Source of the DNA: Protoeuglena noctilucae
Taxonomy: Eukaryota
Reading direction: 5' to 3'
DNA: 64,000 nt
Assembly: GCA_958009085.1 (NCBI GenBank)
Contig: OY253690.1
Coordinates: 248,001 to 312,000, forward strand
Part shown: positions 9,101 through 63,937 of the stretch, in pieces
Layout of the letters: the number at the start of each line of letters is the position of its first letter
Numbering within the stretch: the first letter of the stretch is position 1
Position numbers and translations under genes: made by a program
The notes under the pieces: model-generated
Databases searched by the model: none
What the model was told of the DNA's origin: nothing
Seen by the model: the letters and a program-made list of their open reading frames with translations, nothing else

Positions 9101-10834
9101 CCTTGGCCACATGCTCGTCGCGCCACTTGGTTGCGTCCTCGTTCTGGGAGATAAGTGAAGGGATTCAAAATGATGGTCGGAGATAGGAAGGGCGATGGAT
9201 GACGTTGACAACGACAGCGGTGGTGGTGACGGTTGTTGCAGCGGCGAGGGGAATCTGTCAATCACTGTGGTCGATAGATTGGGATGTGCATGGGCACTCC
9301 TCCTCCGCCCTCTCCGCACACGCTCCACGGTCCACTCATAAGTCACCAGCCCCATCACATTTCACAAATCCACTCACCAGTCACCAAGCCCGATAACAAT
9401 CCCATATGCTTCCCCACACAGATAGCAACAGATCCCCTCACCAGCGCCGGGCACTCCTCCTCAACCCTCTCTCAATCACATTCCCGCACATCTTAACACA
9501 TTCAAAACCACATCCACATTCGAATCCCCTCACCAACGCCGGGCACTCCTCCTCGGCCCTCTCGGCCAGCCTCTGCAGCAGCGCCGACCGCGATGACAGG
9601 GGCGCGAAGGGCACCCCGTGGTATACCCACTTGTTGAAGTCGAAGCTGCACGAGGCCAGGAAGTGCAGGCTGCCGGGGTCGCAGAGGAAGAAGCGGGGGG
9701 GGGAGCCGTCGCGGGGCTGGGCGGGGAGTTGAGGGGGGGAGTATATTAGAGGAGCAGGTGGGCGGGGCTCAGGGGGGCTGTGTTGGGGGGGGGAGTAGAA
9801 TAAAAGGAGCGGGGGGGGGGGAACGTCGCGGGGCTGCATTGCATGGGGGGGAGGGAGGGTGAAAGGCAGGGGAGGTGGGGGGAAGGGTAGGAATTGAGAG
9901 GGGGGGTGGAGGGGGGTGTAGAATGGAAGACGCGGGCGGGGGGGGGCTGAGGGGGTAGTGAGTAGAATGGAAGGAGCGGGGGGGCCTGGCTAAGGGGGGG
10001 AGGGGGTGGGGGGAGGAGTTGAAGGAGGGTGTGTGGGTACCGAGTCATGCAGTGAGGGTGTGAGGGAGGGGTGACGACGAAGTTTCAGCTGACACAACGC
10101 CCCATCCGTGCAGTCGTCACTCCCCATCCTTTACCTCAAGCGGCATGTCACCCCCCCAAACCATGCACACGTCACGTCACTCTCCCATGCATCCCTCACC
10201 TCGGGCGGCATGACGTAGAAGTTGAAGGTGTGGGCCACGTAGCACCCGGGGCTTTCCACGGTGGGCCCTTCCTCCCACTGAAACACCGACACGCCGATCT
10301 GGTGCGCCAGAAACTTCTCCACGCTGGCCCTCTGCAAACGGCGGCGGTGCATGGGAGATGGGCGCACCCGCTAGTCCCGCTAGGCACGCTGGTGCAGCTA
10401 TGAGCGTGGTCCTTTCATGCACGCCACGTGCATTCGAATCACACGCTGAGACAGAAACGAAGGCGACTCAGCAAAGGCAGCGGCATGTGCCCAAAGGGCA
10501 TATGCACGACGCGTGTTCCGATGAAGTCACTCGCCTGGGCGGCGTATCGGTCCTCGGCCGTGTCCCACCAGCTGTTGATGTTGTCGGGGCCGAAGAGACC
10601 CGTCATCTCGCAGTCGATGGCCACGAACTGCGCGTCGTTCAGGCAGTCCCTGCGGACAGGCGATTGCACTTGCACGTTGAGAAAGCCCGTTGTGGGTGAA
10701 AGTCACGTCGATCGCGCATGCTGCACGCTCGCGACCTGCAGGACACTTCCAGAGATACACACGCACGCAGCGCCGGGCGCCGCTCGCCGGAGGGCGGAGA
10801 GCATCCGCGGGAAATTCTCCTTGGTGACCTCCAT
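6147..10834 (-). CDS. PARN: Poly(A)-specific ribonuclease (CAF1/DEDD family), multi-exon
   Basis: MEVTKENF..FVAIDCEMTGLF, with D28/E30 in the same register as human PARN when the GC donor at 10787 is used. Also FDFNKWVYHGVPF, R3H-like MNAFLRKVLYYEL, LIGHNMGLDL, YDTK, HEAGYDAWMTG and a C-terminal RRM-like region. Confidence 0.92.
7261..7424. repeat. Intronic minisatellite, about 3.4 copies of a 48-nt unit
   Basis: The unit CCCTCATGTTACCCCACCCC..CTACCCCACTCCACCACCCCCC starts at 7261, 7309, 7357 and 7405. Confidence 0.9.
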
Positions 10835-11585
10835 GCTGAAAACGTCGCCGTTGGGACGCGGAGAGGCCGCGCCCATCTCGTACGAGTCGCGCCAGCGATC
10901 GATGATGCTGTCGTACGAACGCTGCGGTTGGCGGAAGAGGCTGAAAGTCGCCCAGGGCCCGCGGGCAGGTTCGAACACGAGTGGCGCGCTCACGGTGCCG
11001 CTCGCGCGCTCACCACGGACTCCAGGCTCGCCAGAAGCGCAGCAGTCTCAGTCTCCATCGAGTCCGTCCCGTTCCCGTTCCCCCGCCGGCGATCGCCCAG
11101 CTGCGGGGTTCCCATCCTGGCCGCCAGCCTGGGAGGGCCTCGGGGCAATTGGGAGCGGCGGTGTATTGGCGCGACGCCTGGCCTGCCTGCAGCAGACAGG
11201 GCAGCTAGCATTCAAGTGCTGCGCAAGGGATCGGCACGACACGAGCACGCTCAGCGAGCTCGGAGCGGCAGGCGAGAGTCGCAGTCAACGGCACGATGTG
11301 TGTGTGAGTCAAGGCTGGATGTAAGCGCCGTGAGTTCTCCTGCGGACTCCAGCCCCTCTGTGCAGCCGTCAGCCCTTCGACACAGGGTCGACGTGTCAAG
11401 CAACAGGGCCGCCAGTACTCCGTGGCGCTCTCCAACACCATCCTCATTCAAGGTCTGAGCTGCCGGCCTGTGACTGCCACGGGCGTCCAGCTGCACTATC
11501 GGGCCATACCAGCCCTCACTACCTAACCCTACGGGAGCGCGTCACCCACACCAGACTGGTCATGTATGGGTCGCCCCACGTAGCG

Positions 11586-12497
11586 CTACGCCCGCGCCTG
11601 GGCCTGTGGCTGTGCGCCCGGCTCGCTGCCAGCTTCTGCCGTCGTCCCCCCCGCAAGCTTCTCCAACTCCTTGTTCCAGTCTGTCTGAAATACCCACGGC
11701 TGCTTCCCCGCCAACGCCACCCGCCACAGCGGCTCGTTCTTGATGCTCCCGACCTTCACCTGCAGCTTCTTCCGCATCTCCCACACCTCCACGAACCCCT
11801 TGTCTCGCTGCGGGGCAGGGGATGGACGGGTGGGCCGCATGAGCAGGGTTCCCGTGAAGCGACGTAACCAAAAAGCGTACACTGCGGCGCGTAGCGGGTC
11901 CCGAGTCGCTCACAACGTCATGTACTAACGCTCACCTTGCTCACAGCCTCGTCAAACTTCTCCAGCGAGCCGACCTTGCTCCACGGCAACCGCCCCAAAC
12001 TCAGCTCGGGCCCGTGGACGGGCGTCACGCGCTTGAAACCCCTCCTGAGCGGGAAGCGGTAGCTTACCACTCGCATGGTGTCAAGCGAACAACGGCCTGG
12101 CGAACGGCTGGAGCACGGCGAAGCCGCGCCTGGTCGCCACGCCGTTCGGTCCCGCCGCGGGCGCACGCGACGGCGCGGCTCACCTGACGTTCCACAGCCG
12201 AAAAGCGTACACATCCCCGTGCTTGCCATCGCTCCCCGGCCTCACGTTCGCCACGAGGTAGCGCACGCTGCGGGACACGGGCGCGGCATCGGCTCGTGCC
12301 GCTCGTGGAGCGCTCGAGGTCCCCCGACAGGCGAGCGCTATCGATCGACTGGACATACAGCGCTCAGTGACGCACGCCGCGCCTGACGCGACCGCTCACT
12401 TGGGCGAGTGCCGGACGCACTCCACGAGCTCCCCCACGCCGTAGTTCGGCAGGCCCCTGAGGAGGGGTATCAGCCTCTTGGGCGCGGCCTCTGCCAT
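11586..12497 (-). CDS. Mitochondrial ribosomal protein mS34-like, multi-exon
   Basis: The spliced N-terminus LLRGLPNYGVGELVECVRHSPNVRYLVANVRPGSDGKHGDVYAFRLW resembles remembered plant mS34 LPNWGIG..YQITKINLYKDGRHGKAWG. Internal exon limits are tentative. Confidence 0.62.
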
Positions 12498-19854: not shown

Positions 19855-19895
19855 GGTGCGCCCCCCTCGAGACACCGCCGCGCCGAAGACACTCT

Positions 19896-20371: not shown

Positions 20372-21235
20372 ATGTTCAACGCCCGCAAGAAGATCGCCAA
20401 GCCGGCCGGGGCGGAGCCGACCGAGTTCGAGACGTCCGTGGCTCAGGCCCTGTTCGACCTGGAGGCCACGAACACCGAGCTCAAGACGGAGCTGCGGGAC
20501 CTGTACGTGTGCGGCGCTCGGGAGATTGATGTGTCGCCCACGCGCAAGGCGGTGCTCATCCAGGTGCGCGAGCGTGCGCGGGACGCGTGGAAACGCCACG
20601 CGGGCGATGGTGTGACGCGGCGGCCGCAGCCCCCGCCCGCCGGCCTGCCACGTCCCACGACTGCCCGCCGCAGGTGCCCTACCGCCTGCTGAAGGTTTTC
20701 CACCGGATCCAGCTGCGGTTGGTGCGGGAGCTGGAGAAGAAGTTCTCGGGGAAGGACGTGGTGGTGGTGGCGGCGCGTCGCATCCTGCCCAAGCCTTCGG
20801 ACGAGGCGAGTGCTCGGCCTGCGGGCCCCCCGGGGCGCGCGCACCGCCGTTCGGCTGCGCGTCTGGGTCCTCTCTATGCATGGTTTGATCAGCAGTCCGG
20901 AAGCGACGGCGCCGCGGGCCACTGGAGGTGGGATGGGCAGCTGGAGCAGGGACCTGAGCTTGCCGCCTCCCCTTCGTTCGCGACAGGTGAAGAACCGCCG
21001 GCCCCGGTCGCGCACGCTGACGGCCGTGCAGGACGCCATCCTCGAGGACCTGGTGTTCCCGACGGAGATCGTGGGCAAGCGTGTGCGCTACCACACCGAC
21101 GGGTCCAAGACCCTCAAGGTCTACCTGGACCCCAAGGAGCGCAACTCGACCGAGTTCAAGCTCGAGACGTTCGCGGGGGTGTACAAGAAGCTGACTGGGA
21201 AGGACGTCAAGTTCGAGTTCCCCATCGAGGCGTAA
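20372..21235 (+). CDS. RPS7: 40S ribosomal protein S7 (eS7); exons 20372-20563, 20674-20805, 20987-21235; probable 5'UTR intron 20066-20356
   Basis: [77 protein letters not shown]. Confidence 0.97.
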
Positions 21236-21531: not shown

Positions 21532-22180
21532 TCAGGCAATGGTGTTGGCGGCCGAGGCGACACGGGGCCACAGGTCGGCGCACTCCTTGGCGACGGGGCC
21601 GGTGATGGCGGAACCCTTCATCTCACCCTGCGAGCGAGCAAAGCAGCGGGGATTGATGTGAGCCCAAACCAGATGACGGGCCCGGCAATCATCCGTCACA
21701 GCCGCGCCGCCGCTCGCCTTGGGGTTGACGATGACCCCGGCGTTGTCCTCGAAGTAGATATACACCCCATCCTTGCGGCGCCACGCCTTGCGCTGGCGGA
21801 TGATGACGGCGTTCATCACCTGCGCGGCGGCGGCCACGGCGGAGCGTTGCGCGTGCCCCGCGGCGCCAGGCGGACGCCGTCCCGCCCGCGGCGCGCAGGA
21901 GCGATTTGCAACGCACAGATGCGGCCCGCGCGATGCTCCGCCGCCCGGCCCAACGCACCTTCTTGCGGAGGTCGGGCTTCCCCTTCTTCACCGTGGCGAG
22001 GACCATGTCGCCCGGGCCCGCCTTGGGCAGCCGGTTGAGGCGCGCCCCGAAGCCCACCACCGCCATGATGTACAGGTTCTTGGCGCCCGTGTTGTCGGCG
22101 CAGTTCATCACCGACAGGGTCTGCAGACCGCACGCCATGCGGAACTTCTTGCCGCGCACATCCTCCTTCAGCTTCCCCAT
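21532..22180 (-). CDS. RPL23: 60S ribosomal protein L23 (uL14); exons 22180-21959, 21819-21718, 21627-21532; probable 5'UTR intron 22321-22189
   Basis: [73 protein letters not shown]. Confidence 0.97.
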
Positions 22181-23405: not shown

Positions 23406-26059
<2,654 letters not shown>

Positions 26060-28329: not shown

Positions 28330-31300
28330 ATGTCGTCTCTGGAGAAGGACGGCGGGTCGTCGGGGCCCATCGAGCTCCTGGCGAAGGGCATGGCCGCCAC
28401 GGCGGTCCGTCCGGCCCCCGGCCTCTCGAGTGCGCCTCGCCGCCGGCGCCCATCGCTGCTCTCGCGTGGCTCTTCTCATTCTCATGCGCGCTGCCGTGTC
28501 CTTTTCGTAGTGCATGGCTCGGAGGCCGCGCGGCGCCAGGCCATCACGGAGCTTCTCTTCTTCGCGAGCGTCGGGGACCTGGCGCGCTGCAAAAACCTTT
28601 GCGACGCCTTCTCCATCGACATCAGCGATCCGCGGTGCTGCGACTACGACAAGCGGACTCCGCTGCACCTGGGTGCGCCGGCAGCTGCGTGCATGCTCGC
28701 GTGCCCTGCGCCCCCCTCCCCGCGCCCCTCGTCGCCTTGGCGCACCCTGCTTGTTCACTATGCATTCATCTTGCATGCCCCGCGACGGACTTCCTATCCC
28801 CCGCTCCCGGCAGCCGCGGCGGAGGGGGCGTTCTCGGTGGTGCAGTGGCTGCTGCGCAAGGGGGCGCACGTGAACGCCGTGGATCGATTCAAGCGGACCC
28901 CGCTGGAGGACGCGGTGCTGGGGGATCACGGGCAGGTGAGGAACATGCCACTGCGCTTGTATATGATAACACGTGGGCGCACCGTGACGAGTTACCGTGG
29001 TGCCATCCGCGTCGCCCCTTCTCATCTCCCCTGCTCATTCCCCTGCCCCCGCAGGTGGCTCAGCTGCTGGAGAGCTGCGGGGGCAAGGTTCTGGACCGCG
29101 ACAATCCCATCGAGGCGCTGGCATTGGTGGACATCTCCCGGACCAAGCTGGCCCAGTCCGTGCGCTACGATGACCACAACCTGTGGGAGATTGACGCCAC
29201 GGACATCGAGTTCGTCAAGAAGCTGGGGGAGGTGAGGTGTCCAAGGGATGAAAAAGTGTCTTCTTTGGTTGCCGCTGCACTTGGCAGGGGCATCGCACTG
29301 CAGCTGACAATCACTGCGCTGCTTGGCTCACACTGCTGTCTTGCATGTCATGTGCTTATCCAGTTTCCCACCCTTGTCTCGCTCCCAGGGTGAGTTTGGT
29401 GAGGTGCACATGGGTCGGTGGAATGGGACGCTCGTGGCCGTCAAGGTGCTGCACAAGAGTGACGAGGTCGCCATGGGGGACTTCCGGACGGAGGTAAGGG
29501 GAGAGAAGGGGGGGTTTGTGACAAATATGGGGTGACTGGGGAGTGCAGAGAGGTGCAACTGTGTGTGTAGAGGTGCCTACCCCTCTCTCACACCCTCACC
29601 TACCCTCACACCCTCACCGTCTCCTACCCCTCCTCTCTTCCCCGCAGCTCAACGTGCTGATGCGCACGCACCACCCCCACACGGTCCAGTTCCTGGGAGC
29701 CGTCACCAAGACCATGCCGCTCATGATCGTGGCCGAGCTCATGGCGGGGGGGTCGCTGGTGAGGGCGCTGTGGGAGGGGACGTACATTGTAGAACTGCTT
29801 ATGATGGTATCTGTGGTGAAGACAGGTGTTGAATGGGATGGGCTGGCGCCTGGTGTGGGGTTGCCCGGTGCGGCGTCGTGGCTCATACAGCGGTGTGTAT
29901 GGACTGCTACAAGAATTGTAGCAAGCAAAGTGGCATCGAGAGACGCTGATGCTGACCCACGCATCCCTTTCCTCGCTACGACTACCCAGGCGGATCTGCT
30001 GAAGACGGGCCTGTCCCTGTCGAGGCGCCGTATGCTGGACATCGCGCTCGACACGGCGCGGGGGATGGTGTACCTGCACGGCAAGAAGCCACAGGCGAGT
30101 GGCATGAGTAAATGCCTGCGTGAAGGCTCTCACTGCGTCGGGCCGTCATACAAACCCATTGCTATGCTCATCACCTTCTCTGACCCCCGCTTTCTCTTCC
30201 CAGAGCAGCGTCGTCCACTGCCACGCTCATCACCCCCTCACACACACCCTCTCCTTCTGACCCCAGGGCGTCATTCACCGGGACCTCAAGCCGGCCAATT
30301 TGATGATTGCGGGCAACCCGTACCGACTGGCGCAGAGGGGGTTCCGCGAGAGGCTTATGCTCGAGACGGGCATCGTCAAGATCGCCGACTTTGGGCTCAG
30401 CAAGGTGAGGGTTGCTGGTTAGAGGCAGAGGTGGGGGAGGAGAGAAACATGTGGTCTCAGCACTCCCACTCCCACTCCCACTCCCACTCCCACTCCCACT
30501 CCCGCCCCCGCAGTCTCTGACGCTGAATGTGAAGAAGAGCGTCCACCACAAACTCCGGGAGGCCACCCAGGCCGCCACGCTGCCCCCAGACCCACCCAAG
30601 GATGCAGGGGCCAACCATGCACAGGTGAGATGTGATGTGTGAATCAGATGACTGGGCTTGATTGAGTGAGTCAACGCAGGGGCCAACCACGCACAGGTGA
30701 GATGCGATTCGTGGGTCAGGGCAATATGCTTGATATCATTTGGACAGTACCAGCCGTCCTTGCCCTTAGCTTGCTTGCTGGCTCGGTTGCTTCGTCGCCC
30801 TTCCCTGAGTTGGCACTTACTCACGACACAGGGCCACTCGCCCGCGCTTGCCTTGTCTCAACTGCTCCTCTCGGTTGTTGCCTCCTTCGCAGTCTGGCGA
30901 CGCGGCGGACGCCATCCCGTCCTACCAGCTGACGGGAGAGACGGGGTCGTACCGGTGAGGCAGGGGCTTGCATGTTGGTGCGCGTGTGTGCTGACTGTCA
31001 GTATTGTGACTCGCCACGTGACCTCGGCATGCCACTTCATCTTACAGCCAGCAACATAGTGCATGACTCTCTATGTTGTCACTGTAACGTTTGCAACTGC
31101 CCTCGTCCCTCTCAACAAGCCCCACCGCCACACACCACCGCCCCTACCCTATCACCACCCCCCTCCCTCCCTCTCAGTTACATGGCCCCTGAGGTGTTCC
31201 GCCACGAGCCCTACAACAACAAGGTGGACGTGTACGCGTATGGCATGATCGTCTACTACCTCTTCGAGGGTGTGCCGCCCTTTTATGACATGGACCCCAT

Positions 31301-31912
31301 CGCAGCCGCCAGGCGAGACGGGGTGGACAGTGGATGATTATATATGGATCCGTTTATAAATATAGGCATGCCTACTGGTGACTGCGTCATACGTGTGATC
31401 ACTCCAGCCATGCAGCTGAGCAGCTGCGCGAGTGTTTCGTGGCTCTTCGTATTGTGTATCAGACGCCCACCCTGCTCGTGCCGACTGCTTCTCTTTGCAG
31501 GGCCGCGAGCCTCAACATGGCCAGGCCGCAGTTCCTGAACCCCAACAGCAGGGGCACGAGGACGCCCAAGGTGAGTCACGGCTGATCGAATGGCTCGTGC
31601 GTCATGTATGTCTGGTTGTGCGCTCATATGGCCTTCAGGCCTCTTTCCTTAGTAGCAGCAAGTGTTGCGATGGTAGTATAACTTACACTACCAATTTGTC
31701 GAATAAGACGCCCATCTGCATATGCTAATGGCAAACGTCGCGTTGCTGCCCCGCAGGAGATCCAGGACCTGGTGCGGCTGTGCTGGGACGAGAGCCCCTC
31801 CCGCCGGCCCGAGTTCTATGAAATCGTGGAGACGCTGGAGGGGATGCTGGCCAAGCTGCCGCCCATGAGGCCCATCCTCTGCGGCACAGGGGGCAGCTGC
31901 ACCGTGCAGTGA
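28330..31912 (+). CDS. Ankyrin-repeat Raf-like protein kinase (plant ILK/VIK type), copy 1, C-terminus CTVQ
   Basis: Ankyrin motifs DYDKRTPLHLAAAEG and DRFKRTPLEDA, then GEGEFG, VAVK, HRDLKPAN, DFG, TGETGSYRYMAPE. Confidence 0.92.
30462..30503. repeat. (CTCCCA)n intronic microsatellite; a similar tract lies at 46048-46098
   Basis: Read directly from the sequence. Confidence 0.9.
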
Positions 31913-36073: not shown

Positions 36074-36273
36074 NNNNNNNNNNNNNNNNNNNNNNNNNNN
36101 NNNNNNNNNNNNNNNNNNNNNNNNNNNNNNNNNNNNNNNNNNNNNNNNNNNNNNNNNNNNNNNNNNNNNNNNNNNNNNNNNNNNNNNNNNNNNNNNNNNN
36201 NNNNNNNNNNNNNNNNNNNNNNNNNNNNNNNNNNNNNNNNNNNNNNNNNNNNNNNNNNNNNNNNNNNNNNNNN
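36074..36273. other. Assembly gap (200 N)
   Basis: Run of N. Confidence 1.
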
Positions 36274-44700: not shown

Positions 44701-47068
44701 GCCACCACAGTCGTGTCCCCGTCCCCCTCCCTCCACACCACGGCGTGGAGGATGCCCTCGGGGAAGTGACGCAGCTCGCATCTGAGTAGATGAGAGTGAG
44801 AGAGTGTGAATGAGAGAAAGAGCGAGTGAGAGAGTGAGTGAGTGAGGGTGGTGGTGGTGGTGTTGGTGAGAGTGATGAGAGTGGGGGAAGTGACGCAGCT
44901 CACGTCTGTGGGAGTGAATGGTGACTGTTTACATAGAAATATGCACTAACAAAGCCTCATTATACCCATCAACCCCCCCCCCCCCCCCATTCCCCCCCGC
45001 CCAAATCCTCGCCTGTCCCCCCACATCTCCCGGAACGCCGGCACCTCCTCCTGTTTCATGCACTTGTCCGCCGCCAGAAACGCCCTCTGGGGGTCCACCA
45101 CCACCCCCACGACACGCGGCTCTGGCGCCAAATCTGGCGCCGACTCAGGGGGGGACGCCAACCGTCGCCCCCCGGTCCCTTTCCCCTTCCTCCTTGTTTC
45201 AGGCACATCGTCAATGCCAGTAAACGACTCCGATGGCATCTGCATTGACGCCTGCCCCCCCGGTCCCTTCCTCCTCTTTACCCCCCGCACGCCACCGTCG
45301 CTGTCGTTGCCACCACCACCATAGCTGTCACCACTTGTGTCATCACCCTTGGTTGAATTTTGAATGGTGGGAATGGCTGCTGCTCTCACGGACACGGCGC
45401 GTGGTCCCAGGTGGGCGGCAGCCAGGGACTCGACCTCTGCCTCGATGGAGGGGATGGGACTGGGGAGAGGGGGAGAGGTGGGGTGGGGGTGGGGGTGAGG
45501 GTGAGGGTGTGGCAGTGGGGGTGGCAGTGCGGGTGGGTGTGGCAGTGAGGGTAGGAGTGGGGGTGGCAGTGGCAACCTCACCTGTCGACACGCAACCGCA
45601 CCCCACATTGTACCATACATCCACTACACATTCCCACACATCGCACATCCCCAACACCCCCCACACAAACACCCCCATCTCCATCCTCACCGCCCCTCCG
45701 CCTCGCATGTGACTTGGAACACAAAGTCGAACGCCCCCACCGCCCCCCCCTCACTCCCCGGCCCCCCACCCATCACCGCCCTCTTCACATCTACCCCAGC
45801 ATCCTTCGCACACTCTTTGATGTGCGCTATCGCGTGTTGCGATGCGTGGTGGGTGAGTGACGTGGGAATGCCCTTGGCGATGGCTCTGAGGGCGTCGGAT
45901 GCCAGGGTGAGGGCCCCCGTGGCCACCAGGCCGGAGTCTGTGATTTGGGGGGGGGGAGGTGGGGTGATAGGAGGGGTGGTGGTTGGGGTGGCAGGTGGGT
46001 TGGGATGTGGTCGAAGTAAAGGTGAGGATGAGGGCACACACACCCATTCCCACTCTAACTCCCACTCCCACTCCCACTCCCACTCCCACTCCCACTCTGA
46101 CTGCCACTCACCCCTCTTCGCCAGTCTGACGCACAGGTCCTCCAGGCACCGCCCGTGCACCCCCCCCGCCCCCCACGCCGCCCCGACCCGCCTGGCCCAC
46201 GCCTTGACAAGCACAGCCGCATCGCGGACAGCGGTGGCGGAGGAGAGGGCAACGCTGCGGGACTCGTCTCTCTGAGATGGGATGAGGAGAGGGAGAGGGT
46301 GTTCAAGGGGTCAGGGAGGGGTGGGTGAGGTGAGTCGAGGGATTTGGGAGGGGATGGAGTGGGAGTGGGTGACATGAGATATGGAAGGGGTGTGCCACCC
46401 ACACCGCACCACAAGTGCACACCCAGACACCCACCCCCACCGCCCCCCCTCACCCTCTGCCCATCCCCCACCGCCTCTGCCGAGTCTGCCAGATGCACCA
46501 GCACCGCTGTGTGTGTGCGTCCGTCCACCACACGCACGAGGGGGGAGGGGCGACCGCAGTCGTCCCTGCGTCACATGGTAAGAGAGGGGGATAGTGGGGG
46601 TCCGTGAAGGGGTGGCAAACGGTGGTGTGCATTTGGGGGTAGGGGCGACTGCGGTCGTCCCTGCATCCCATCACATGGCGAGAGAGGGGAGCACTGGGTG
46701 TGAGTGCGTTTGCTTGGTGTACTTCACTGTACCACGTGACATAGCAACACACCACACCACAGCACAACGGCCCTCTCGTCTCCTCACCGGGACACGCGGC
46801 ACGCGGGACCCAGCGCGCGGCCCAGCACCCGCGCCACGCCCTCGAGTCGCTCCGCGCGATCCTTTTCAGATACCGACGACGCTCCCGGAAACACCAGGAC
46901 GTCCCCCGCCGCCCCGGCCAGCGCGGTCCCGGTCACCACGCTGCCTACTGCAGCAGCCGCCCACCCGGGGCCCGCGGAGGCGAGGGCCGCGGTCGCCGCG
47001 CGGCACAGCTCGTGGAGATGACTCCGCTCCGCATCCCCGGCGCGATGACGCTCCACCGCCGCGGCCAT
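41760..47068 (-). CDS. NOL6/Utp22 (Nrap family)-like protein, divergent, multi-exon
   Basis: Degenerate nucleotidyltransferase-like AVGSVVTGT..GDVLVFP; FREMWGDRCELRHFPEGILHAVVW resembles Nrap FWGEKAELRRFKDGSI.ESVVW; ACRMFKSWLGS; C-terminal YGRVAFF..GGEAIGVGF. Confidence 0.7.
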
Positions 47069-47783: not shown

Positions 47784-50700
47784 ATGGAGAAGAACGAGTC
47801 CTCCCGCGCCAGCCGCAACAACATCGAGGCCAGGTGAGGGATCTCCCGGCCGGACCCGGCGAGCCCCCCCAGGCGTTGGCGGGACAGCATGGCACGGCCG
47901 GCGAACCCCGCGGGCGCGTCCAATCCGGGCCCCGCGCCGCGGCCCGGGCCTCCCCCGCGGAGCACACCTTTTTTGAACTCCTCGCTTGCAGCCTGCATGG
48001 GGAGAGCGCCGCGCGGAGGAGGGCCATTCAGGCGAGCAAACAGCTAGGTTTTCACATGGGCGGATGTGGGCGGGCCGGGGCGCGCGCGCGGGGCCCGCGA
48101 GCCGTCCGGTATGACGTGACCGTGTCTCGGTTCGCATTTCGAACCCGTCGCTGTCGCCCTTCCCCCCGCGGACGCGGCGCTGCGCCTCCGGAGGGGCACC
48201 AGCACCGCCTCTCCTCATGGCCCGCCGCGGCGCCCCTGGGTCACCCGCGCGCCCCCGGCCTCGCCCGCGCAGGAGCTTTTATTCTTTGCGAGTGTCGGGG
48301 ACATCCAGCGATGTAAGAAGCTCGTCGAGAGCTGGCGCCTGAACGGTGGGTCGCGCGGGGGCTCGTTGCGCGCGCGGCGCGCGGCGAGGCGGGGGGCGCG
48401 ACGGGCTTTGGGATGCGACAGTGTTGTTTCATCGCTCCGCATTGCTCCGTAACCCCCGCAGTGGCCAACGCGGACTGTTGCGACTACGACTCGCGCACGC
48501 CCCTCCACCTCGCCGCCTCCGAGGTGACCCGCGGCCCCGGCGGCGCATTTATCGTTTCTTATTAGTATATGTAGCCCATCGCTGTGCCGTTTTTGCCGCC
48601 ATCGCGTCGTCTCGAGACGAACAGTTGCTAAATACCACGAAGTATCGACGCGTGATTGCTTCCTCTCCCCCCGCTTCCCCCCAGGGCGCGTGGGTGGTGA
48701 CGCAATGGCTTTTGGAGTCCGGCGCTGCCATCAACGCGTTAGACCGCTTCAACCGCACCCCTCTCGAGGATGCGGTGCGGGGGGAGTTTCTGGAAGTGGC
48801 GCGCCTGCTCATCGACCGTGGTGGGATGATCTTCCAGAGAGGCAAGCTCGTGTCCGTCGCCGACTCGGAGCTCAGCGGGTATTTGAACCTGCAGGCGCTG
48901 GGACTGACGCCTGGCTTCGAGGGGCTGGATTTGGATCCCGAATGGGAGATCGACCCGACCGAGTTAAAAGTGTTGGACAAGCTGGGGCAGGGGGAGTTCG
49001 GGACGGTGTTCAAGGCCAAGTGGAGGGGGTCGTACGTGGCGGTGAAGGCGAGTGGAGGGGGGGGTGGGGGGTGGGGGGGGTATGGGGGGGACTGGTTGGG
49101 GCAGAGCGGTGGTGTCGGTGGTGGGGCTGGAGGCGTTGTGTGTCAGCACTACCTCATGCACTGACTGCCTCTCCCCAGGTCCTCAACTCCAACGCCATTG
49201 CTGTTGGCGCCTTACTCCCACGCTCACTCACTAGCTCACTCACTCACTCACTCACTCCCTCACTCACTCACTCACCCAACACCCCCCCATCTCCCTCCCC
49301 CCCCAGGTCCTCAACTCTTCTGATTCCATCGCTCTCGGTGATTTCCGCACCGAGATCGGCATCCTGCGCCGCGTGCACCACCCCAACGCCGTGCAGATGC
49401 TGGGGGCATGTACCAAGAGCAAGCCCTACATGCTCGTGACCGAGTTCGTGCCGGGGGGGTCGCTCGCGGGGCTGTTCCGCATGGACAGGAGCCCCAGGTG
49501 AGTTATGCAGTTGACAGTTACTGATAGCGGTTGATATTGATGAGTCGATTGATGGTGGTGGTGTTAGTGGGGCTGTTTCGCATGGACAGGAGCCCCAGGT
49601 GGGTGTTACTATTATTACTACCATTATTATTACCATTACTGTCACTTTCATTCATCACCAATTATTCCCCCTCCCCTTCAGCTTGCGTCGCGTGTTGGAG
49701 ATGGCCCTGGACAGTGCACGTCGCATGTCGATTACAATTAGTACCACCATTACCATCACTAATCACTTATATCCCCCCTCCGCTCGCAGTCTCCGCCGTG
49801 TTCTGGAGATGGCCCTGGACATTGCGCGAGGCATGGCGTACCTCCACAGCACCGCCAAGGGCATCATCCACAGGGACCTGAAGCCGAGGTGAGAGTGGTT
49901 TTCAAATACAAAAATTATACTTAATTATTGCAGTATTAATCCATTTAAGCTCCATCTCAACTGTTGCACTGTTGCCCATGTATGCACATCGACCCCACTA
50001 CTACCGCTTCCCTGCAGCAACATCTCTTACAGTGGGTGTGGCTCCTACTGCAACTCCCCCGTGCAATCACAACCACCGACACACTTTCCCACTGGTTGTT
50101 GTCAACATCCCTTTCCCATCCATCGCAGCAACATCCTGGTGGGCGGCTCCTACTACAACTCCCCCATGGAGCTCGTCTTCCACACGGGCATCATCAAAAT
50201 CGGCGACTTCGGCCTCAGCAAGTCGCTGCCCGTGTTCACCAAGCAGGCGCCGGACCTGAAGGTGAGTGGAAGAAGGGAAGGGTTGATGTTGCCACTATCA
50301 ACTCAGCGCTAGCAACACACCGCCCACTAAGCCACCCTCCCACCACCCACTCTCTCACTACCACTGCCACTCGCATGCTATTTACCAGCTCTTGTTACTC
50401 ACTCACTTACCCTTCCCCTCTTAAATTCAAACAGGAGACGTACCACCTGACGGGGGGCACAGGGTCCTACCGGTACATGGCCCCCGAGGTGTTCCGCCAC
50501 GAGCCCTACAACAACAAGGTGGACGTGTATTCCTTTGGCATGATCCTATACCAGCTCATCGAGGGGGTGGTGCCCTACAACGGGACCAAGGTGAATGGCT
50601 GGGGGTGGTGGTGGCGGTGTGAATGCGACGGGGGGCGTCGTTGTGATAAATGCGACGCATCACAATCACAGAACAGCACCACGTAACAGCCACAGTGCAG

Positions 50701-52895: not shown

Positions 52896-55800
52896 CTACC
52901 CCTGCTTGGCCCTGGCCACCGCCTCGGCCGCCGCCGCGGCAATCGACGCGTCGTTCGCGTTCGGCAAGTAGTAGTACTGCCCCTGCCCCGCCTTGGCGAT
53001 CTCCTGGGCGAACCCGGTCGATACGAACTTGTTCTCGGTGTCGATCACCAGCAGCTGCAGGCCGGCGGCATAGACCTTGCGGGACATGTCGAGGACCTGG
53101 GGGGGGGGGGTTGTGGGGGTGGTGAGTGATGTGGGGTGGGGTGAGTGGGGTGAGGGTGGGAGTGGGGGATGAGGGAGTGGAAGTAAGGGTGACTAGGGTG
53201 GGGGAGAGGCAGTGAAGGGTGTGTGAGGGTGAGGGTGGTGGAGGGGTGGTGAGGGGTTGGACACACCCACATTCAGCAAACACTTCCCCTATTTCAACCA
53301 CCATCACTCTCACACCTACTTACTCCATCACTCCCACATTCAGCCATAACTCCCATCTCACCTCCGCCCTCAGCTCCTCCGCCCCCATGTTCTTCTGTTC
53401 TTCTTGGGCAGCTCCCCCTCACACCCACACCCACTAACACACACACTAGCACACACCATGACAATTCAAATTCAAACATTCAAACACCCTTCTCACCTCC
53501 GCCCTCAGCTCCTCAGCCGCCATCTTCTCCTTCGGCGGCTCCCCCTCCGCTTCGTTGGCCTTGGACAGCGGCACGTTGGCACGACCATCCGTGATGAGCA
53601 CCACCATGGCGCGGCCCACGTCGCCCTGGGTGTCAGGAGAGATGGGGATAGTCGACATAGTATATATACACTATATGGCATTGTGTAGACTGCATGGCAT
53701 ATCGATGTGTATGGGATGGGTGGGACGGGGTGAGGACCACCGTGGCGCGGCCAATCTCCCATCCCATATCCCACCAACCACTCCCAGCCAGCAACAGCAC
53801 AAACAGTACCAGTCACAATCACACAACTCTTCCCCACTCTCACCTGCGCGAGTGCGTTCATGCCCGTCCTGGCCGCGAGCGACAGCCCGTGCGCCAGGGG
53901 CGACCCCCCCCCGCACGGCAGCGTGTCCATGCGCTTGCGGGCCATCGAGATGGACTTGGAGGGGGGGAGCAGCACCTCGGCCTTGTCGCCGTAAAAGGGG
54001 ATCAGGCACACCTGGGGGGATGGGGGGATGGGAGTTAGGTGTTGGAATAAGAGTGAGTATGATGGTGAGAGTGGTTGTCAGTACTATGGTAAGTGCATCG
54101 GCCTTGTCTCCATAAAAGGGGATCAGGCACACCTGAGATGGAGGGGGAGATGGGGAGAGGGGAGGGTGTGCAGAGCTGCTTTAGTGATGGTGGTGAGCGA
54201 CAGCGCTGCACTGTGCAGCCGCATCCACACTCCCATCAGTACCATCATCACTCTCCCTCTCTGTTTATCTCTACTCATATACACCCACTCACCTGGTCTC
54301 TGCTCTGGTACGAGTCGGCCAGTAGCCGCATCACGGCCCCCTTGGCCGACGCCATGCGATTGAGCGCCATGCTGCCCGACGCATCCACCACAAAGAGCAC
54401 CAGCGCGCCTGCCTTGCGGGCCATCTTCTTGGCGCGCATGTCGGGCTCCTCCACAAACACGTTGCGGGAGGCCTGGGGGGGATGGGGGGGAAGGGGTGGG
54501 GTTGGGGTTGGTGTGGGTGGGTTAAGAGGGGGTGAGGGGGTGGGTTGGGGGGGTGAGGATGGGGGAGGGGGAGAGGGAGAGGTGTGAGCGTCAGGAATGA
54601 TTGCGAGACGGCTGGGAGTATCGAATAAAGTGTGTGCACAGTTCAAACACCCAACAAATACCCACTCGCCTTTCCCTCCCGGACCGCCTGCTCCCGCCTG
54701 CTGCGCTGGTACGGGGCTGCCGCCCTGAGCGTGGCGTCCACGGCCAGCCGCCGCACTTTGCCCTTGGGGAGGATGGGCTTGATGTAACGACCCCGGTCCT
54801 CGCTGAAGATCAGGTTCTTGGCCCTGGGTTATCAGTGCAAGGGGTGTTGCAGTCTTGTGCTTCTGGGTCACGTTGCGCTTGACCAATGAGGGAGTCCATT
54901 GGGCAAGGCACATGGCTGCCAACCACACACACCATCCCTCACCTCCCGTGCTGCTGCTGCTGCCAGGCCTCCATCTAAGTGCCCACCGCACACACCCACA
55001 CACTCCATCAATACACACACCCCCACTCCCTCACCTCCCGCTCCTCCCCTGCGCCCTCTGCTGCTGCTGCGCCATCTGCATCACGCTCGGGTCCATCACC
55101 ACCCCCTCCGTGTCAAACATGAACTCCTGCGGGATCTGATCCGATTCGGGGTCGTCCTCGTCGTCCTCTTCCTCGTTCTCGTCTTCTTCCTCCTGCTCCT
55201 CCTCCTCCTGTGTGGTTATTGGGGAAATGGGGAGGTGTGTTAGTATAAGTAATATAAATCATCTACTGCAATAGTACTGGTGCTGTAAGTACTGGATATT
55301 TACAATAGCAGGTGCCGCCAGCTCACCTCCACCACCTACCCCCACCCATCTACATTCGTAATCCACTTATCTATATATCTTATACTATATATATTATATA
55401 TAACCGATCCCCATCTCATCCCCCCCTCACCTCCTGCTCCCCGCTGTCCTGGGGCGGCGGGGGCGGCGGCGGCGGCGGCTGCTCCTCGGGGGGAGGGGGG
55501 TCCCTCAGCACACTCCTCGGCAATATCACCAGCTCCACCGCGCGCTGCAGGTCCTCCGGCTCCACCCGGTTGCGGCCTTCCAGGGCTGCGCACGCCTTGG
55601 CGACCCGCACGGCAAAGACCTCGGCCCGATGCCCCTGCACGCCCCCGCGGCGCGCCTCCTCCACCAGGTACTTGACCTGATTGGGGGAGGGGGGAGAGGA
55701 AGGTTATAAACATGTATATATAGTATTATATGAGAGAGAGGGTGAGTGAGTGGGGGTGGCAGTGAGGGAGGCAATCGGGGTGGCAATGAGGGTGAGGGTG

Positions 55801-58550
55801 GCCAGAAGAGTGGGGGTGGCAGCGTGGCGACCGACTTCAGGTACTCTCATGCCCATGCACCCGTCACTACTTCACTACATGCACCCACATTCCCCCTCTC
55901 ATTCACCTGCTTTGGCCCGATGGCGACCGTCTTCAGGTACTCGCGTGCGAATATGATGTTGGTCTTGAGCTCCTCCGTCAGCTCCGTCACCTCGCGGAAC
56001 ACCGACTGTTGGGGATGGGGGGGGTAATTGAAGTGAGAGGGATGGGAGAGGTGAGAGGTGAGAGGGGGGGCTTAGAGGGGTGGGAGTGGGGGTGAGAGTG
56101 GGATGGGGGAGGGGGTGGGAGAGGTGGATGAGGCACTGTGACGCTCTCCCTCACTCTGCACCATCACCACTTCTACTCAACCACTCACCCACTCCCTCAT
56201 CTACTGCCACCATATGTCATATAATAATTTTCAGTCATTCCCCATATATACACCCCCATCACTTACCTGCGGGTCGTCCTGGAACCTCTGCGCCATCTCC
56301 ACCGCCGCCACCCGCTCCTCGAACGACGCCGGCACGTCGCAGCTCAGCGTCACGGCCACGCGGTCCAGCAGGTGCTCGCGGAGGGGGCCCTCTGCGATGG
56401 TTGAGCATAGGAGAATACGAGTATATATTTGAGTATACTCCGGGTTGTAGGTGGCAATGAGCACACAGTCACTATCACCCCAAACAAACACCAATTAACC
56501 ATTCCATCTCCCCTCCCCCCCCCCCCCCCTCATCTCTCACCCTCCGGGTTGTAGGTGGCGATGAGCATGCACTCACTACCACCCCACAGCACCATCCAAT
56601 TAAGTAATGAGTAATAACCGCTCAATTATAACCACTCAACCACCCATCAACACCCCCCCTCACCCTCCGGGTTGTACGTGGCTATCAAAAGTGGCCGGCA
56701 GGGGTGGGAGATGGAGATTCCCTCCCTCTCCACCACGTTCACGCCGTCCGCCAGGATCGACAGCAGCAGGTTGCAGATGCCGTCGTCCAGCAGGTTCACC
56801 TCGTCCACGTAGAGGATGCCCCGGTGGGCCTCGGCGAGGAGGCCGGGCTGGAAAACCGTCTTGCCCTCCTGTTGGGGGGAGGGGAGGGGGGTGTCAAATC
56901 GGTGTTTAGATTGTGGGAATGGTATGTGAATGGATGCAAGTGGGTGTGAGGCCGGGCTGGAAGACCGTCTTGCCGTCCTGTTGAGTGGGAGATGGGGGGG
57001 ATGGGTTGGGGTGAGTTAAAGTGGGGGTAAGAGTGGGAGTGTGTGTGACAGGCCTAGCTGGTACACCGGTACTCACATCCACACCCATCTGTACATCTGT
57101 TATACTCATCACCCCCATCACCCCATCATACATCTGTTATACTCATCACCCCCCCATCACACTCTCACCTTCATTGACGCCTCGATGTCCACCGTCCCCA
57201 CCAGGCGGTCCTCGGTCACCCCCAGCGGGATCTGCACATAGGGAGCCTCCTTGACGACACGCACGGGGTCGGCACCGTTCAGGCGCTCGCGGAGGCCGTC
57301 CTCCCACTCCCCGGGGGAGTCTGGGGTGGGGGAGGGGGGTGCTAGTGGTGTTGAGCGGGGGTGGGGGTGTGTGGGAAGGGGGTTGGGGGTTGTTAAGGGG
57401 TGTTGAGAGGGGGGGTGTGGGGGTGTGGGGGGGGGTCGAGGGGTGTTGTGGGTGAGGGGGGGAAGGTGGTGTGAGAGATGCGGCTGAGAGAGGTAGGGGT
57501 TGAGTGGGGAGGTGGGGAAGGGAGGTGGTGTGATAGAGTTGAATGATGTGACAGGAAATCTGAGAACAATGGAGGGGAGAGATGGGGAATGAGGGAGGAG
57601 CGACGGAGCACGGTTGGTGTAGCGGCTGCGTTGCATGTGCACGTGCTGGGTATTGAGATAGGAGCGGTCCTTGCTGTCCATCCCCCCACTCCACCCCTCT
57701 CCCATCCCACACCGTCCCGGGAGGGGAGGGACAGACCGTCGCGTGAACCCATGCATGGGGTGCGTGGAGATGGGGAGAGCGGCACCGCTCGCTAGTACCA
57801 CCGGTAAGACATGCAATGGCGAGTGCGCGGACACATCAGTGGGCACGCACACCCCGACCACCCCCATCGCTCACCACTCTCCCGACTCCCCACACACACC
57901 ACACCCACTCCCCCTCTGCCCCACACACCCACTCACCCGGGTCCGCATTGCAGATGGACCCCTCGACGACCTCAATGGGCGGCAGCAGGGCGTGGATGCC
58001 CCTGGCCATGATGGACTTGGCCGTGCCACGCCTCCCCGCAATCGCCACGCCGCCCAGGTTCGTGTCGCACGCGCCCAGGAGCAGCGCCTGCGGGGAGACA
58101 CGATGAGCGCGCTGGGAAGAAAGAATGGAAACAAAGCGATGTGATGGTGACGACGCCCGGGCCGCGGCGCGCCTGCTTGATGAGCTGCTGGCCCACGACC
58201 GCGGCGAGCGGAAAGGTGCGGAGGAGCTTCAGCTGCTTGCTGTCGCTGCTCAAGAGGACGGAGGAAGACTGTTCCATCGCCTCGGCGGCCTTGGCTGCGG
58301 GCATGGCGAGGCGCTCGGCGTGTCGCACCACGGATAGAGTGCGCGCGTCCGCGCCCGCCCCGCGATCTCGTGGCCGAGGGCTGGCGCGGGGACGGTCACC
58401 TCGGTCCTCCGCCGAAGCCGCAACTGCCGCGATGGCGAGCGACCTCCCCGGCTTCCCCCATGGCGTCGCGCGCGCGGCCGGGCGCTGACCCCCGGGCCCA
58501 GCTGCCAGGCGCGTCGCGCCGGCCCACCAGGCGCAGCAGGCGCCCTTCAT
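52896..58550 (-). CDS. CHLD: Magnesium chelatase subunit D, nuclear-encoded plastid protein, multi-exon; start tentative
   Basis: [60 protein letters not shown], a polyproline/acidic linker, and the vWA motifs [14 protein letters not shown] and LITDGRANV. Confidence 0.97.
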
Positions 58551-60178: not shown

Positions 60179-63100
60179 TCACTGCAGCGACTGCAGTCGG
60201 AAGGTGACGGCCTGGCGGTGGGCGTCCAGGCCCTCCACCTCCGCCTGTGAGGGTTGGGGGGGTGAGTGAGTGAGTGAGTGAGTGAGTGAGTGAGTGAAGA
60301 CATTGCCATGGTGGCTTTCATAGCATAGCACAGGACCGTGCTGTGCGTGAGGCGTGGCCTGGTAAGCGTCTCACCATCTTGGCCACGTGGGGTCCCAGGT
60401 TGCGCAGTCCCTCCTCCGTCAGTCGCTGCACCGTGACCTTCTTCTGCAGTTGGCATAGACACAGGCATGGTTAGTATGAATGGGCATGGTCAGACGCTGC
60501 AGTCAGCTGTCCATGGCATGCCACTGATCACCCCTACTGTACAGGGCATGCTCGTCGCTATTAATCTCATCACTCCACTCTCACCTGGAACGAGTCCAGC
60601 GACACCCCGCTGTACATGGCCGCGTACCCGTAGGTGGGCAGCACGTGGTTAGTGCCGCTGGCGTAGTCGCCCATGCTCTCGGGGGTATACCTGAGTGGGG
60701 GGAGAGGAGGGGGCATGGTTGCAGGGCAGGGATGACTGAGATGAGATGACATGCGCTCTCCACCTTTCCACTCCCACTGCCTTGCTATCACTCACATCCA
60801 TTCCCATCCACCCCAACCTCACCTCCCAAGGAACACCGACCCCGCGCTCTCCACCCCCGGCAGCCACTCGTCCGCGTCTACCGTGTTGATGATCAGGTGC
60901 TGGATGGAGAGATGAGAGATGAGAGGTGAGACAGTGAGAGAGTGAGAGAGTTACTGCTTGGCATCAGACAGGCCATGTTGATGATCAGGTCGACCAAAAT
61001 GCGCAGCGCCTCCCCCCCTCTCACCCCACCCACCACCACCCCATCCATGACCTTTCCCATGCATTCCCACCCCACCACATCGTCACTCTTAGTCAAACCC
61101 CCCCATCCCCCCCCCCTGTCTCACTTCGGGCGCATATTCGTTGGAAATACGCAGCGCCTCCTCCCTCGACTCCACGGCGATGATGCAGCTGTTGGCGATG
61201 GCGCGGCTAGCCACCGACGCGCGTGGCAGGGCCGACAGCTGGCGGTGCACCTCCGCAGCCACGGCGGGGACGTCTACGCCGGGGAGGGCCAGGAGGATGA
61301 CCTGTAAGGGGGAGGGAGTGAGTTTGAATACAGGTGAGTGAGTGAGGGAGTGGCTACGTTCACGCCGGGGAGGGCGAGCAGGATGACTTGTAAGGGGGAG
61401 GGAGTGAGTTTGAATATAAGCGAGTGGGTGTGAACTGATGAGTGAGTGACTGTGGGTGAGTGAGTGTGTGTGAGTTTGCGATTGCGACTGTGGGTGGTGG
61501 AGGTCAGTCACCCCACCCATCCATCTCTTGCCTGGTTTTGCTGGCCGGTGCTCCGCCTTGCTGAGCAGGTCCACTACCAACCATGCACATCAACACCCAT
61601 CTACACCAATCATAGTCTACACATCATCATCCATTCCCCACCCATCCCTCGCCTGGCTATCTGGCCCGTGCTCCGCCTGGCTGAGCAGGTCCGCGGCCAC
61701 GTGCGCCCTGTCCGCCCCTGCGTCGCACACCACCAGCACCTCGGAAGGCCCGGCGGGCATGTCGATCGCAACCATCGCCTGGGGGGGAGGGAGAGGTGAG
61801 AGGGAGTGTCATAAATGTATAGTGCACAACGCCATAGAAGTGGTGGCAATGCAAGTGACAGTCACAACTATCGCAGGGTCACCTCCGTACCTGCACCCAC
61901 GCCACCCCAATCACCACCACTATCACTGTCTATACAGATAGTTGAGATCCTCACCTCCGCGTTCTGCATGAGCATCTTGGCCGCCGTCACGTACTGGTTC
62001 CCCGGGCCAAAGAGCTTGTGCACCTTGGGGCAGCTCTGCGTGCCCCACCCCATGGCCGCCACCGCCTGGGCGCCGCCTGCCTTGAGGATGTGAGTGACGC
62101 CCGCCTTCTTGGCACAATACAGGACCTGGGAGGGAGATGAGAGGGGAGGTGAGTGAGTGAGTGAGTGGGTGAGTAAGTGACGCCCGCCTTCTTGGCACTA
62201 TACAGGACCTGGGAGGGAGGGGTGTGAGTGAAGCTGTGAGTGGGCGAGGATGTGCGTCACGCCTGCCTCGCACTCTGCCCTTTTCCGCCCCCACTCAATT
62301 CAGGCGACACGCCCCACCCTTGTACCACCCCCACCGACCCCACCTCACCTCCACCAGACATGCTCCCACTATGCCCCTCTGTCATCCCCCCCTCATCAAC
62401 CCCTTACTCACCTCCGGCGATATGCTCCCGTCCTGCCTGGGCGGCGTGGCCATCACCACCGTGCGGCACCCCGCGATCTGCGCAGGCACCGCCAGCATGA
62501 GGGCCGAGGAGGGGAGCACGGCGGTGCCACCGGGGACGTACAGGCCCACGCTGTGAGGATGGGGGGAGTTGGTGAGTGAGTGAGTGAGTGAGTAAGGTGA
62601 GTGAGAGGGAGAGTTGGTGTGCGGGTGAGTAGGTGAGCGGAAAGTGAGGGAGTGAGTGAGAGTGGTAGTTGGCGAGGGCGAGGAGCGAGGTGCCCCGCCA
62701 CCACCTGTGTGCCCTGATATCAACTGTCCCATCCATCACCTCCACACCGCACCACGACTGCCCCCCTCCCCTCACCTGGTGATGGGCCTCGCCACGCGCT
62801 TGCATGTGACCCCCGGCATGGTGTGCACGTCCTTGGTCTCCGTCATCTGTGACTCGTGGAATGCCTTGATGTTGGCATAGGCCACGTCGAAGGCCTCGCG
62901 GACGTCGTCGGGGAGGGAGGGGTCGGGGAGATCAGAGGGCCTGGGGGTGGGGGTGGGAGAGGGGTAAGAGTGAGCGCAGCAGGGGGTATGAGGGGTGAGA
63001 GAGGGGGGTGGGGGTGAGGGCCGCGGGGTTGCAGAGGGGTCCGGGAGATCAGAGGGCCTGGGCGTGGGGGTGGGAGAGGGGTGGGGGTGTGAGCGTAGCG

Positions 63101-63937
63101 GGGGTGTGGGCGCAGCTGTGGCTTATGAAGGGTGGGGAGAGGGGTGGGTGAGAGTGGGCAGGGAGGGGTGCCGGTGGTGGCACGGAGCGAAGACGGCATA
63201 GCATGCGTGGAGGTGGTCCAGACCAGGTGCACCACTGCACACTCCGATGAACACTCACCGCACCACCAGCTCGTCCAGGTCCGCCTTGTCGAACTGCGGG
63301 GGATACAAGCAACCTGGCATGATATCACTGAAAGCCAAATGCACACTTCACAGCCCCGCAGCTGTCGCGGCCCGGCTCTATATCCACAAACAAAAGCCCC
63401 GCTCGCCTTCTTGGTGTACTCCCGCACGGCGTCGTCGCCCCGGAGCTTGACCTGCTCGATGATGGGAGCCACCACGCCGAATATCTGCGTCAGGTCAATC
63501 CGCGGGCGCTGCAGCGCGCGGCGGAGGTCTGCGTCGGACAGCGTCCGCGCATCCAGCGTGCGGATGGCCGAGCCCGTCCCTGCGGCAAGCGGGCGAGCGA
63601 GGAGGCGTCAGGGATCCGCGGCGAACCGTGCGCAGGTCGATCGGCAAGGACCGCGGCCCAACCGGCTGGCACCACCCGCGCTTCGCGTCGCATCGGCCCC
63701 GCCGGGCGCGGCGGCCGCGAGCCCGGCCGACCAGAACGCGGGTCGGGGTGCGACTCTGGAGCACGGCACAAGGGACATGCCGGTCGAAGGCGCGGCGCGG
63801 CGCTCGCCTGGCTCGGATGCCACAGCCCCCGCCATGACGCGGCCCCTCCCCTGGCGCCTTGCCGCGAGTCCTCGGGGCCGGACCCCACACCCGCACGCAG
63901 GGACGCGACCGCCAAGCACGGCCAGCGTGGCGGGCAT
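60179..63937 (-). CDS. HDH: Histidinol dehydrogenase (HisD/HISN8), multi-exon; start tentative
   Basis: [91 protein letters not shown]. Confidence 0.96.

Follow-up and report, generated by a model that had tools for sequence, protein, structure and literature searches.

GC-AG introns make up about 1% of the introns of animals, plants and fungi, and non-GT-AG introns as a whole about 1-2% (PMC7072748). In this study, we analyzed a stretch of 64,000 nucleotides from Protoeuglena noctilucae (contig OY253690.1, positions 248,001 to 312,000; the whole stretch is hereafter called the window), in which roughly one intron in five is of the GC-AG type. The closest described systems are found among GC-rich marine algae. 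In the haptophyte Emiliania huxleyi (65% GC), GC donors reach 56-64% (56% of 241 curated junctions and 61% of Cufflinks junctions), were verified by reverse transcription PCR, are under-called by ab initio models and were ascribed by the authors to genomic GC content (Feldmesser et al. 2014, PMC4028052). The window resembles this system in that it comes from a marine alga of about 65% GC whose GC donors are combined with AG acceptors, validated by transcripts and missed by ab initio prediction. On the other hand, GC is the majority donor in the haptophyte, whereas GT prevails (37/50 resolved introns) in the window, whose host is a green alga.

In the pelagophytes Aureococcus anophagefferens and Pelagomonas calceolata, about 14-17% of introns were predicted to be GC-AG, which was also ascribed to GC content, and the lower-GC Aureoumbra has 0.32% (bioRxiv 10.1101/2024.10.30.620910). 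These species share with the window a GC-rich marine genome and a similar proportion of GC-AG introns; however, they are stramenopiles with 0.14-0.92 introns per gene and with predicted splice signals (10.1101/2024.10.30.620910), whereas the genes of the window are intron-rich (11 introns in the histidinol dehydrogenase gene, HDH, and 13 in the gene of Mg-chelatase subunit D, CHLD) and RNA or cDNA supports 10 of its GC junctions. Across genomes, splice-site GC and genome GC are weakly correlated (PMC7072748; PMC6310983). The pattern of the GC-rich algae, genomic GC of about 63% or more combined with 10% or more GC donors, was found in the window itself, which has 59-72% GC in 4-kb steps and GC-AG at 13/50 resolved introns and 4/15 RNA joints. 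A first reading of the window from its sequence (the original prediction) had treated the phenomenon as unprecedented, a view that these GC-rich algae contradict; the window adds a green-algal instance to a feature already known to be linked to composition. For chlorophytes, no report of an elevated GC-AG share was found in the full-text literature, the search leaving most subscription journals and supplements outside, and the word "splice" was absent by term search from the accessible text of the preprint on the genome of the pedinophyte YPF701 (70% GC; 10.1101/2021.10.04.463119); a prior chlorophyte report is possible.

GC donors had been predicted at 18 introns, nearly all of the form AG/GCGAG (a slash marks a splice boundary). 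We found the motif on the expected strand at all 18 sites (17 with G/GCGAG, and 58172 with G/GCGCG), and AG/GCGAG at 16 of them. Not one site was refuted: nine are supported by RNA or exact cDNA products, six by best-scoring homology junctions and three on weaker grounds. A 19th GC-AG intron, absent from the predicted list and lying beyond its end coordinate, was identified in HDH (63807..63580). Ten introns are defined by transcript data (RNA joints or an RNA loose end) or by exact matches to cDNA-derived proteins, and each of them has GC..AG as its sole canonical-like placement; nine further GC-AG introns are backed by homology or frame. The evidence comes from RNA contigs of four sequencing runs, from proteins encoded by cDNA (P0001 and P0122), from homologous proteins (P0241 and P0245) and from contig L001 of a relative. 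The 19 introns, with donor, length in nucleotides (nt) and evidence, are as follows.

10332..10534, minus strand: PARN intron 2, CAG/GCGAGT, 203 nt; top junction against P0241, no length change
10650..10787, minus strand: PARN/CAF1-family gene, intron 1, CCG/GCGAGC...CCGCAG/G, 138 nt; top junction against P0241
13720..13902, plus strand: leucine-rich-repeat (LRR) gene, AAG/GCGAGT, 183 nt; RNA piece start and frame (weaker support)
20806..20986, plus strand: ribosomal protein S7e (RPS7), GAG/GCGAGT, 181 nt; RNA joint in 4/4 runs, GC..AG only
21628..21717, minus strand: ribosomal protein L23 (uL14, RPL23), AAG/GCGAGC, 90 nt; RNA loose end and open frame
23813..23989, plus strand: DED1/DDX3-type helicase, intron 1, GAG/GCGAGT, 177 nt; RNA piece start and frame (weaker support)
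24797..24942, plus strand: DED1, CAG/GCGAGA, 146 nt; RNA joint in 3/4 runs, no GT-AG placement
25117..25339, plus strand: DED1, CAG/GCGAGG, 223 nt; RNA joint in 4/4 runs, no GT-AG placement
25553..25771, plus strand: DED1, AAG/GCGAGG, 219 nt; RNA joint in 3/4 runs, no GT-AG placement
30095..30266, plus strand: ankyrin-kinase gene 1, CAG/GCGAGT, 172 nt; top junction against the L001 kinase, no length change
31313..31707, plus strand: ankyrin-kinase gene 1, probable GC-AG intron, CAG/GCGAGA; best score against the L001 kinase, acceptor uncertain (weaker support)
44782..45012, minus strand: Nrap/NOL6-like gene, CAG/GCGAGG, 231 nt; top junction against P0245, one-residue length difference
48032..48272, plus strand: ankyrin-kinase gene 2, intron 1, CAG/GCGAGC, 241 nt; comparison with contig L001
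49048..49306, plus strand: ankyrin-kinase gene 2, AAG/GCGAGT, 259 nt; top junction against the uninterrupted L001 ortholog
54473..54669, minus strand: CHLD, AAG/GCGAGT, 197 nt; exact P0122, 1/8 placements canonical-like, GC..AG
58088..58172, minus strand: CHLD, atypical donor, CAG/GCGCGC, 85 nt; exact P0122, 1/9 placements canonical-like, GC..AG
61302..61652, minus strand: HDH, CAG/GCGAGG, 351 nt; exact P0001, 1/5 placements canonical-like, GC..AG
63294..63406, minus strand: HDH, AAG/GCGAGC, 113 nt; exact P0001, 1/3 placements canonical-like, GC..AG
63580..63807, minus strand: HDH intron 1, CAG/GCGAGC, 228 nt; exact P0001 residues 1-67, 1/6 placements canonical-like, GC..AG

Transcript evidence was obtained by aligning marine metatranscriptome contigs from runs X1, X2 and X4 (one study) and X5 (another) to positions 12001-32000. 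The metatranscriptome runs contained about 40% of the sampled words of 20300-26300, as expected if only exons were present. The alignments gave 53 RNA joints, the best-supported 15 of which were examined, so that absence from these 15 is uninformative for a predicted site, and all equivalent placements of each of the 15 were enumerated. Eleven of them could be placed as GT..AG or CT..AC, and the remaining four (20806, 24797, 25117 and 25553) could not be placed as GT-AG and had a single GC..AG placement each. For the L23 donor (21717), 17 loose letters of an X1 contig are identical to window positions 21610-21626, which fits the joint 21627/21718; after splicing the frame is open to the stop codon, and Ribosomal_L14 (Pfam) matches both sides of the intron. 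This 90-nt intron is in frame and free of stop codons, and its retention would therefore insert 30 residues into the protein and not truncate it. At 23813, RNA pieces of X1 and X2 begin at 23988, which is the acceptor given a 2-nt AG ambiguity; the frame is continuous, no in-frame GT donor occurs within 90 nt, and the DED1 exon from 23990 matches DDX3X (E=1.7e-100). Similarly, an X1 piece begins at 13901, the acceptor of the LRR-gene intron given a 2-nt ambiguity, and the frame is open and LRR-like across the joint, with an in-frame stop after the donor; an in-frame GT at 13639 is the remaining alternative. One further RNA joint in DED1, from 25935 to 26240, was rejected as an intron, as it carries three extra letters, lies in the glycine-rich repeat with the frame ending at about 26056, and has no fitting junction. 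At 24616, in the large DED1 exon, the RNA contigs of X1, X2 and X4 have G and the window has A, for which strain variation among the populations sampled is the simplest explanation.

For HDH and CHLD, introns were fixed by cDNA-derived proteins. The 443-residue protein P0001 was found with one HDH exon; the locus spans 3.65 kb, whereas the longest contig encoding P0001 has only 1809 nt, and the protein thus derives from spliced RNA. It matches the window exactly over 12 exons and defines 11 HDH introns, eight GT-AG and three GC-AG. The 751-residue protein P0122, found with a CHLD exon (longest contig, 2459 nt), matches 14 exons exactly and fixes 13 CHLD introns, 11 GT-AG and two GC-AG. Exact cDNA-derived proteins thus place five GC-AG introns among the 24 introns of the two genes.

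The other sites were evaluated by homology. The search for PARN homologs returned one 45%-identical protein, and no cDNA product of the same species was found; searches of PDB with short PARN exons gave no match or one chance match. Splicing at 10787 produces no length change relative to P0241, and the first 34 residues, counted from the start codon, align without gaps, with a modest margin in score (61 versus 55 and 54 for the next junctions). At 10534, the two exons meet at position 53 of the Pfam CAF1 profile, which the upstream exon reaches exactly at 10535 and from which the downstream exon continues. For the gene at 41.7-46.3 kb (minus strand), a representative search with NOL6 retrieved five proteins, including the usable P0245 and a 101-residue open reading frame (ORF) fragment of the same species that is uninformative for junctions. 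The junction at 45012 scores 212 against P0245, versus 189 for the best GT. The name NOL6 is plausible but weakly founded, resting on a marginal Pfam Nrap_D3 match (E=0.0085) and the one partial relative P0245. In ankyrin-kinase gene 1, splicing at 30095 lets the segment that precedes the catalytic loop align without a break to the uninterrupted kinase-domain coding sequence of the L001 ortholog of kinase gene 2 (a paralog template), and the Pfam kinase profile has position 122 on both flanks. The junction at 31313 scores 253 versus 244 for a GT alternative, with a weak acceptor context. In the same gene, 29760-30000 (plus strand) encodes about 77 residues within the kinase domain that are extra relative to the L001 kinase and may hold another intron; the best-scoring candidate donor is also GC (AGG/GCGCTG at 29765), and GT alternatives score nearly equally. 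In ankyrin-kinase gene 2, exon similarity to L001 ends at the donor 48032 and restarts at the acceptor, splicing at 49048 causes no length change (score 491 versus 470 for the best GT), and the other six introns are GT-AG.

Altogether, 13 of the 50 introns resolved in the window are GC-AG and 37 have GT, a GC-AG proportion that is probably overstated for reasons given below; RNA or exact cDNA evidence alone gives 10/40. By gene, the resolved introns are distributed as follows.

RPL7: 0 GC-AG among 5 resolved introns
RPS7: 1 among 2
RPL23: 1 among 2
DED1: 4 among 4
RPL13: 0 among 4
HDH: 3 among 11
CHLD: 2 among 13
Ankyrin-kinase gene 2: 2 among 8
ACP: 0 among 1

The whole window has at least 19 GC-AG introns, and the share would be about 13-19% if it holds about 100-150 introns. 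At least one GC-AG intron occurs in 10 of the 13 genes that have resolved or predicted introns. The original prediction of a share far above the usual one was thus borne out, with about 13-26% depending on the denominator versus about 1-2% in animals, fungi and plants (PMC7072748). Motif counts were compared with 100 second-order Markov simulations. AGGCGAG occurs 28 times on both strands (14.9 +/- 3.7 expected), with 16 of the 28 being predicted donors, and AGGTGAG occurs 68 times (14.7 +/- 3.8 expected).

Sequence context distinguishes the two donor classes. The full consensus was found in 16/18 GC donors (AG/GCGAG) versus 14/36 GT donors (AG/GTGAG; Fisher p=0.0005), and the contrast was retained when only transcript- or ortholog-defined GC donors were considered (11/12 versus 14/36, p=0.002). 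Lengths of GC and GT introns did not differ (medians 197 versus 213 nt, p=0.63). None of the 19 donors matches the U12-type motif RTATCCTT (quoted in PMC2846911), as all have GCGAG or GCGCG at +1 to +5. The GC-AG introns of the window resemble ordinary U2-type GC-AG introns in their dinucleotides, in the AG acceptor and in a remaining donor consensus that is stronger than that of GT introns. They differ in a frequency that is an order of magnitude higher and in the G at +3 (GCGAG). The mammalian GC donor motif is the A-rich GCAAGT. The 3' ends of the verified introns are strongly C-rich, for example in 53097-53496 and 54473-54669, with runs such as CCCCCCAG, and this C-rich low-complexity tract is the sole similarity among the introns. 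GC content is 0.42-0.77 in the introns of HDH and CHLD, lower than in those of the ribosomal-protein genes (0.65-0.85).

Intron content was also compared with that of a relative. A metagenome scan with an exon of ankyrin-kinase gene 2 identified two near-identical contigs, L001 and L002 (69% and 67.5% GC), which are syntenic with about 48-60 kb of the window (47.4-59.9 kb); the corresponding parts of L001 are 6140-8296 and 9021-10625, and L002 is arranged likewise. CHLD and the kinase gene lie on one strand in L001 and on opposite strands in the window. The CHLD frame of L001 is uninterrupted and holds protein P0161 exactly. P0161 is 81% identical to P0122, and their alignment is gap-free at 12 of the 13 positions where the window has CHLD introns. 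Beyond its first intron, the L001 kinase ortholog has an unbroken coding sequence, seven of the eight kinase-gene introns of the window being missing there. Only 5'-proximal introns are shared, namely kinase intron 1 and the single ACP intron. The latter has GT in both, and kinase intron 1 is GC-AG in the window and GT-AG in L001 (9021-9257). As the relative, with an 81%-identical CHLD, has none of the 13 CHLD introns and only one of the eight kinase-gene introns, one of the two lineages has undergone a large and recent change in intron content, either a loss in the relative or a gain in the lineage of the window.

Taken together, we consider it likely that these are ordinary U2-type GC-AG introns, generated by GC-biased T-to-C change at position +2 and kept at strong donors, with a normal U1; both the mutational cause and the unaltered U1/U6 are inferred. 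GC-biased mutation or biased gene conversion would shift T to C at +2, and the C would persist only where A at -2, G at -1, G at +3, A at +4 and G at +5 are all consensus. At such donors, pairing with the normal 5' end of U1, and later with U6, would remain sufficient, and the acceptor would stay AG. Compensation of this kind would be expected if C at +2 remains a mismatch to U1; in humans and lower organisms, GC 5' splice sites make up for the U1 mismatch that T>C at +2 introduces by a closer fit to the consensus at their other positions (PMC3167603). An alternative is that altered recognition machinery, such as a U1 variant with G opposite +2 or a changed U1C or U6, makes GC and GT donors equivalent and relaxes selection. 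A GC share 10 to 25 times the level found in most eukaryotes (PMC7072748) and the GC at all four known introns of DED1 would fit such a change. However, no compensation would be expected if C paired as well as T, yet the GC donors adhere to the full consensus far more strictly than the GT donors, the highly expressed RPL7 and RPL13 use GT at 9/9 introns, and base composition alone was given as the cause in other GC-rich algae, where GC shares are similar or higher. We therefore favor GC-biased drift at strong donors and regard altered machinery as unlikely. The original prediction had offered two causes for this lineage, a mutational bias or U1/U6 that are unusually tolerant; the stricter consensus of the GC donors speaks for the bias and against the special tolerance. 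Several observations weigh against GC-biased drift at strong donors, or against the figures behind it. GC donors may have been found by their AG/GCGAG look, which would inflate the context contrast; the 11/12 subset, although small, lessens this worry. The donor at 58172 (GCGCGC) lacks A at +4, and compensation is therefore not absolute. The resolved sample leans to genes flagged by the original prediction, so that 13/50 probably overstates the GC-AG share. The spread is uneven, with GC at 4/4 introns of DED1 (23813-25771) and 0/9 in the neighboring L7 and L13e genes (17883-19800 and 26435-28055); thus, a factor beyond uniform mutation pressure, such as expression level, selection or local GC, may matter. 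At the kinase intron shared with the relative, the donor may have changed from GT to GC or from GC to GT. Finally, Rfam found no RNA family, U1 and U6 included, in the window or in contigs L001 and L002, so an altered small nuclear RNA, although unlikely, may exist.

Two further explanations concern the origin of the GC introns and the reliability of the C itself. In one of them, the GC introns would derive from an intron-generating element (introner) that spread recently and bears a 5' GC. The recent change in intron content would fit this, as the relative with an 81%-identical CHLD has none of the 13 CHLD introns and lacks seven of the eight kinase-gene introns. However, GC and GT introns are intermixed within the same genes, and the 25 hit pairs obtained by all-versus-all BLASTN of 39 verified introns of the window consist entirely of short C-rich stretches of low complexity, with no family and no grouping of GC introns. 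With no sequence family shared among these 39 introns, an introner origin was rejected, and we consider it very improbable. It is more improbable still that the GC donors are an artefact, either because the true base is T (assembly error or strain polymorphism) or because the mRNAs use nearby GT donors. Spliced RNA contains no intron bases, and the RNA contigs therefore do not show the C itself; DNA runs X8-X11, which contain every sampled word, may be the source of the assembly and hence not independent. On the other hand, the position of a joint is the same whichever base stands at +2. For 10 introns, all placements compatible with RNA or protein were enumerated and none was GT..AG, which excludes nearby GT donors there, in agreement with the original prediction. 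Nineteen independent T-to-C errors, all at +2, would be implausible.

The placement of the host relies on protein comparisons. The eL13 exon has its best matches in plant ribosome structures (E about 5e-42), with fungal and animal chains at about 1e-34 or worse, and the nearest named relatives of HDH and CHLD are green algae among the matches listed. A FastTree tree was built from 38 CHLD proteins out of the 120 listed; in it, the window protein groups first with two marine sequences and next with Pedinophyceae sp. YPF-701, at local support values of 99 and 98. These sequences point to a marine chlorophyte that is possibly allied to pedinophytes, a wording kept cautious because the tree rests on one plastid-targeted gene and a quick method. 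Other features of the window include a single run of N (36074-36273, 200 bases), and ARAGORN found no tRNA in the window. A second Pfam scan with 130 more ORFs added only two matches, both kinase exons. A permissive tblastn search at E=1 returned mostly low-complexity noise. We also observed two pairs of similar genes, which lie on the plus strand.

3001-5208, plus strand: large single-exon F-box and ankyrin-repeat gene
39378-41075, plus strand: large single-exon F-box and ankyrin-repeat gene
28177-31909, plus strand: ankyrin and protein-kinase gene (ankyrin-kinase gene 1)
47.4-51 kb, plus strand: its paralog (ankyrin-kinase gene 2)

The occurrence of both pairs within one 64-kb stretch suggests that these are expanded families.

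Our results have several implications for GC-rich algae. Gene finders that accept only GT donors, or favor them, will break or truncate a large share of the genes here, and probably in related GC-rich green algae. The warning given with the original prediction that standard gene finders would mis-annotate these genes agrees with the situation in E. huxleyi, where ab initio models contained 15% GC donors versus about 60% in transcripts (PMC4028052). With a chlorophyte joining the haptophyte and pelagophyte cases, a repeated, composition-driven outcome is strengthened over a lineage-specific invention, and the usual compensation rule is shown to apply even at a GC-AG share of 20%. More tentatively, and rather doubtfully, position +2 could be effectively neutral in this lineage at fully consensus donors, T and C drifting under GC-biased conversion, so that the share of GC donors would read out the strength of the bias. 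Such drift would coincide with a rapid flux of intron content in this lineage. If this were true, the species of the window and its relative would offer a natural system for studying the turnover of splice sites and the large-scale loss or gain of introns over short evolutionary distances.

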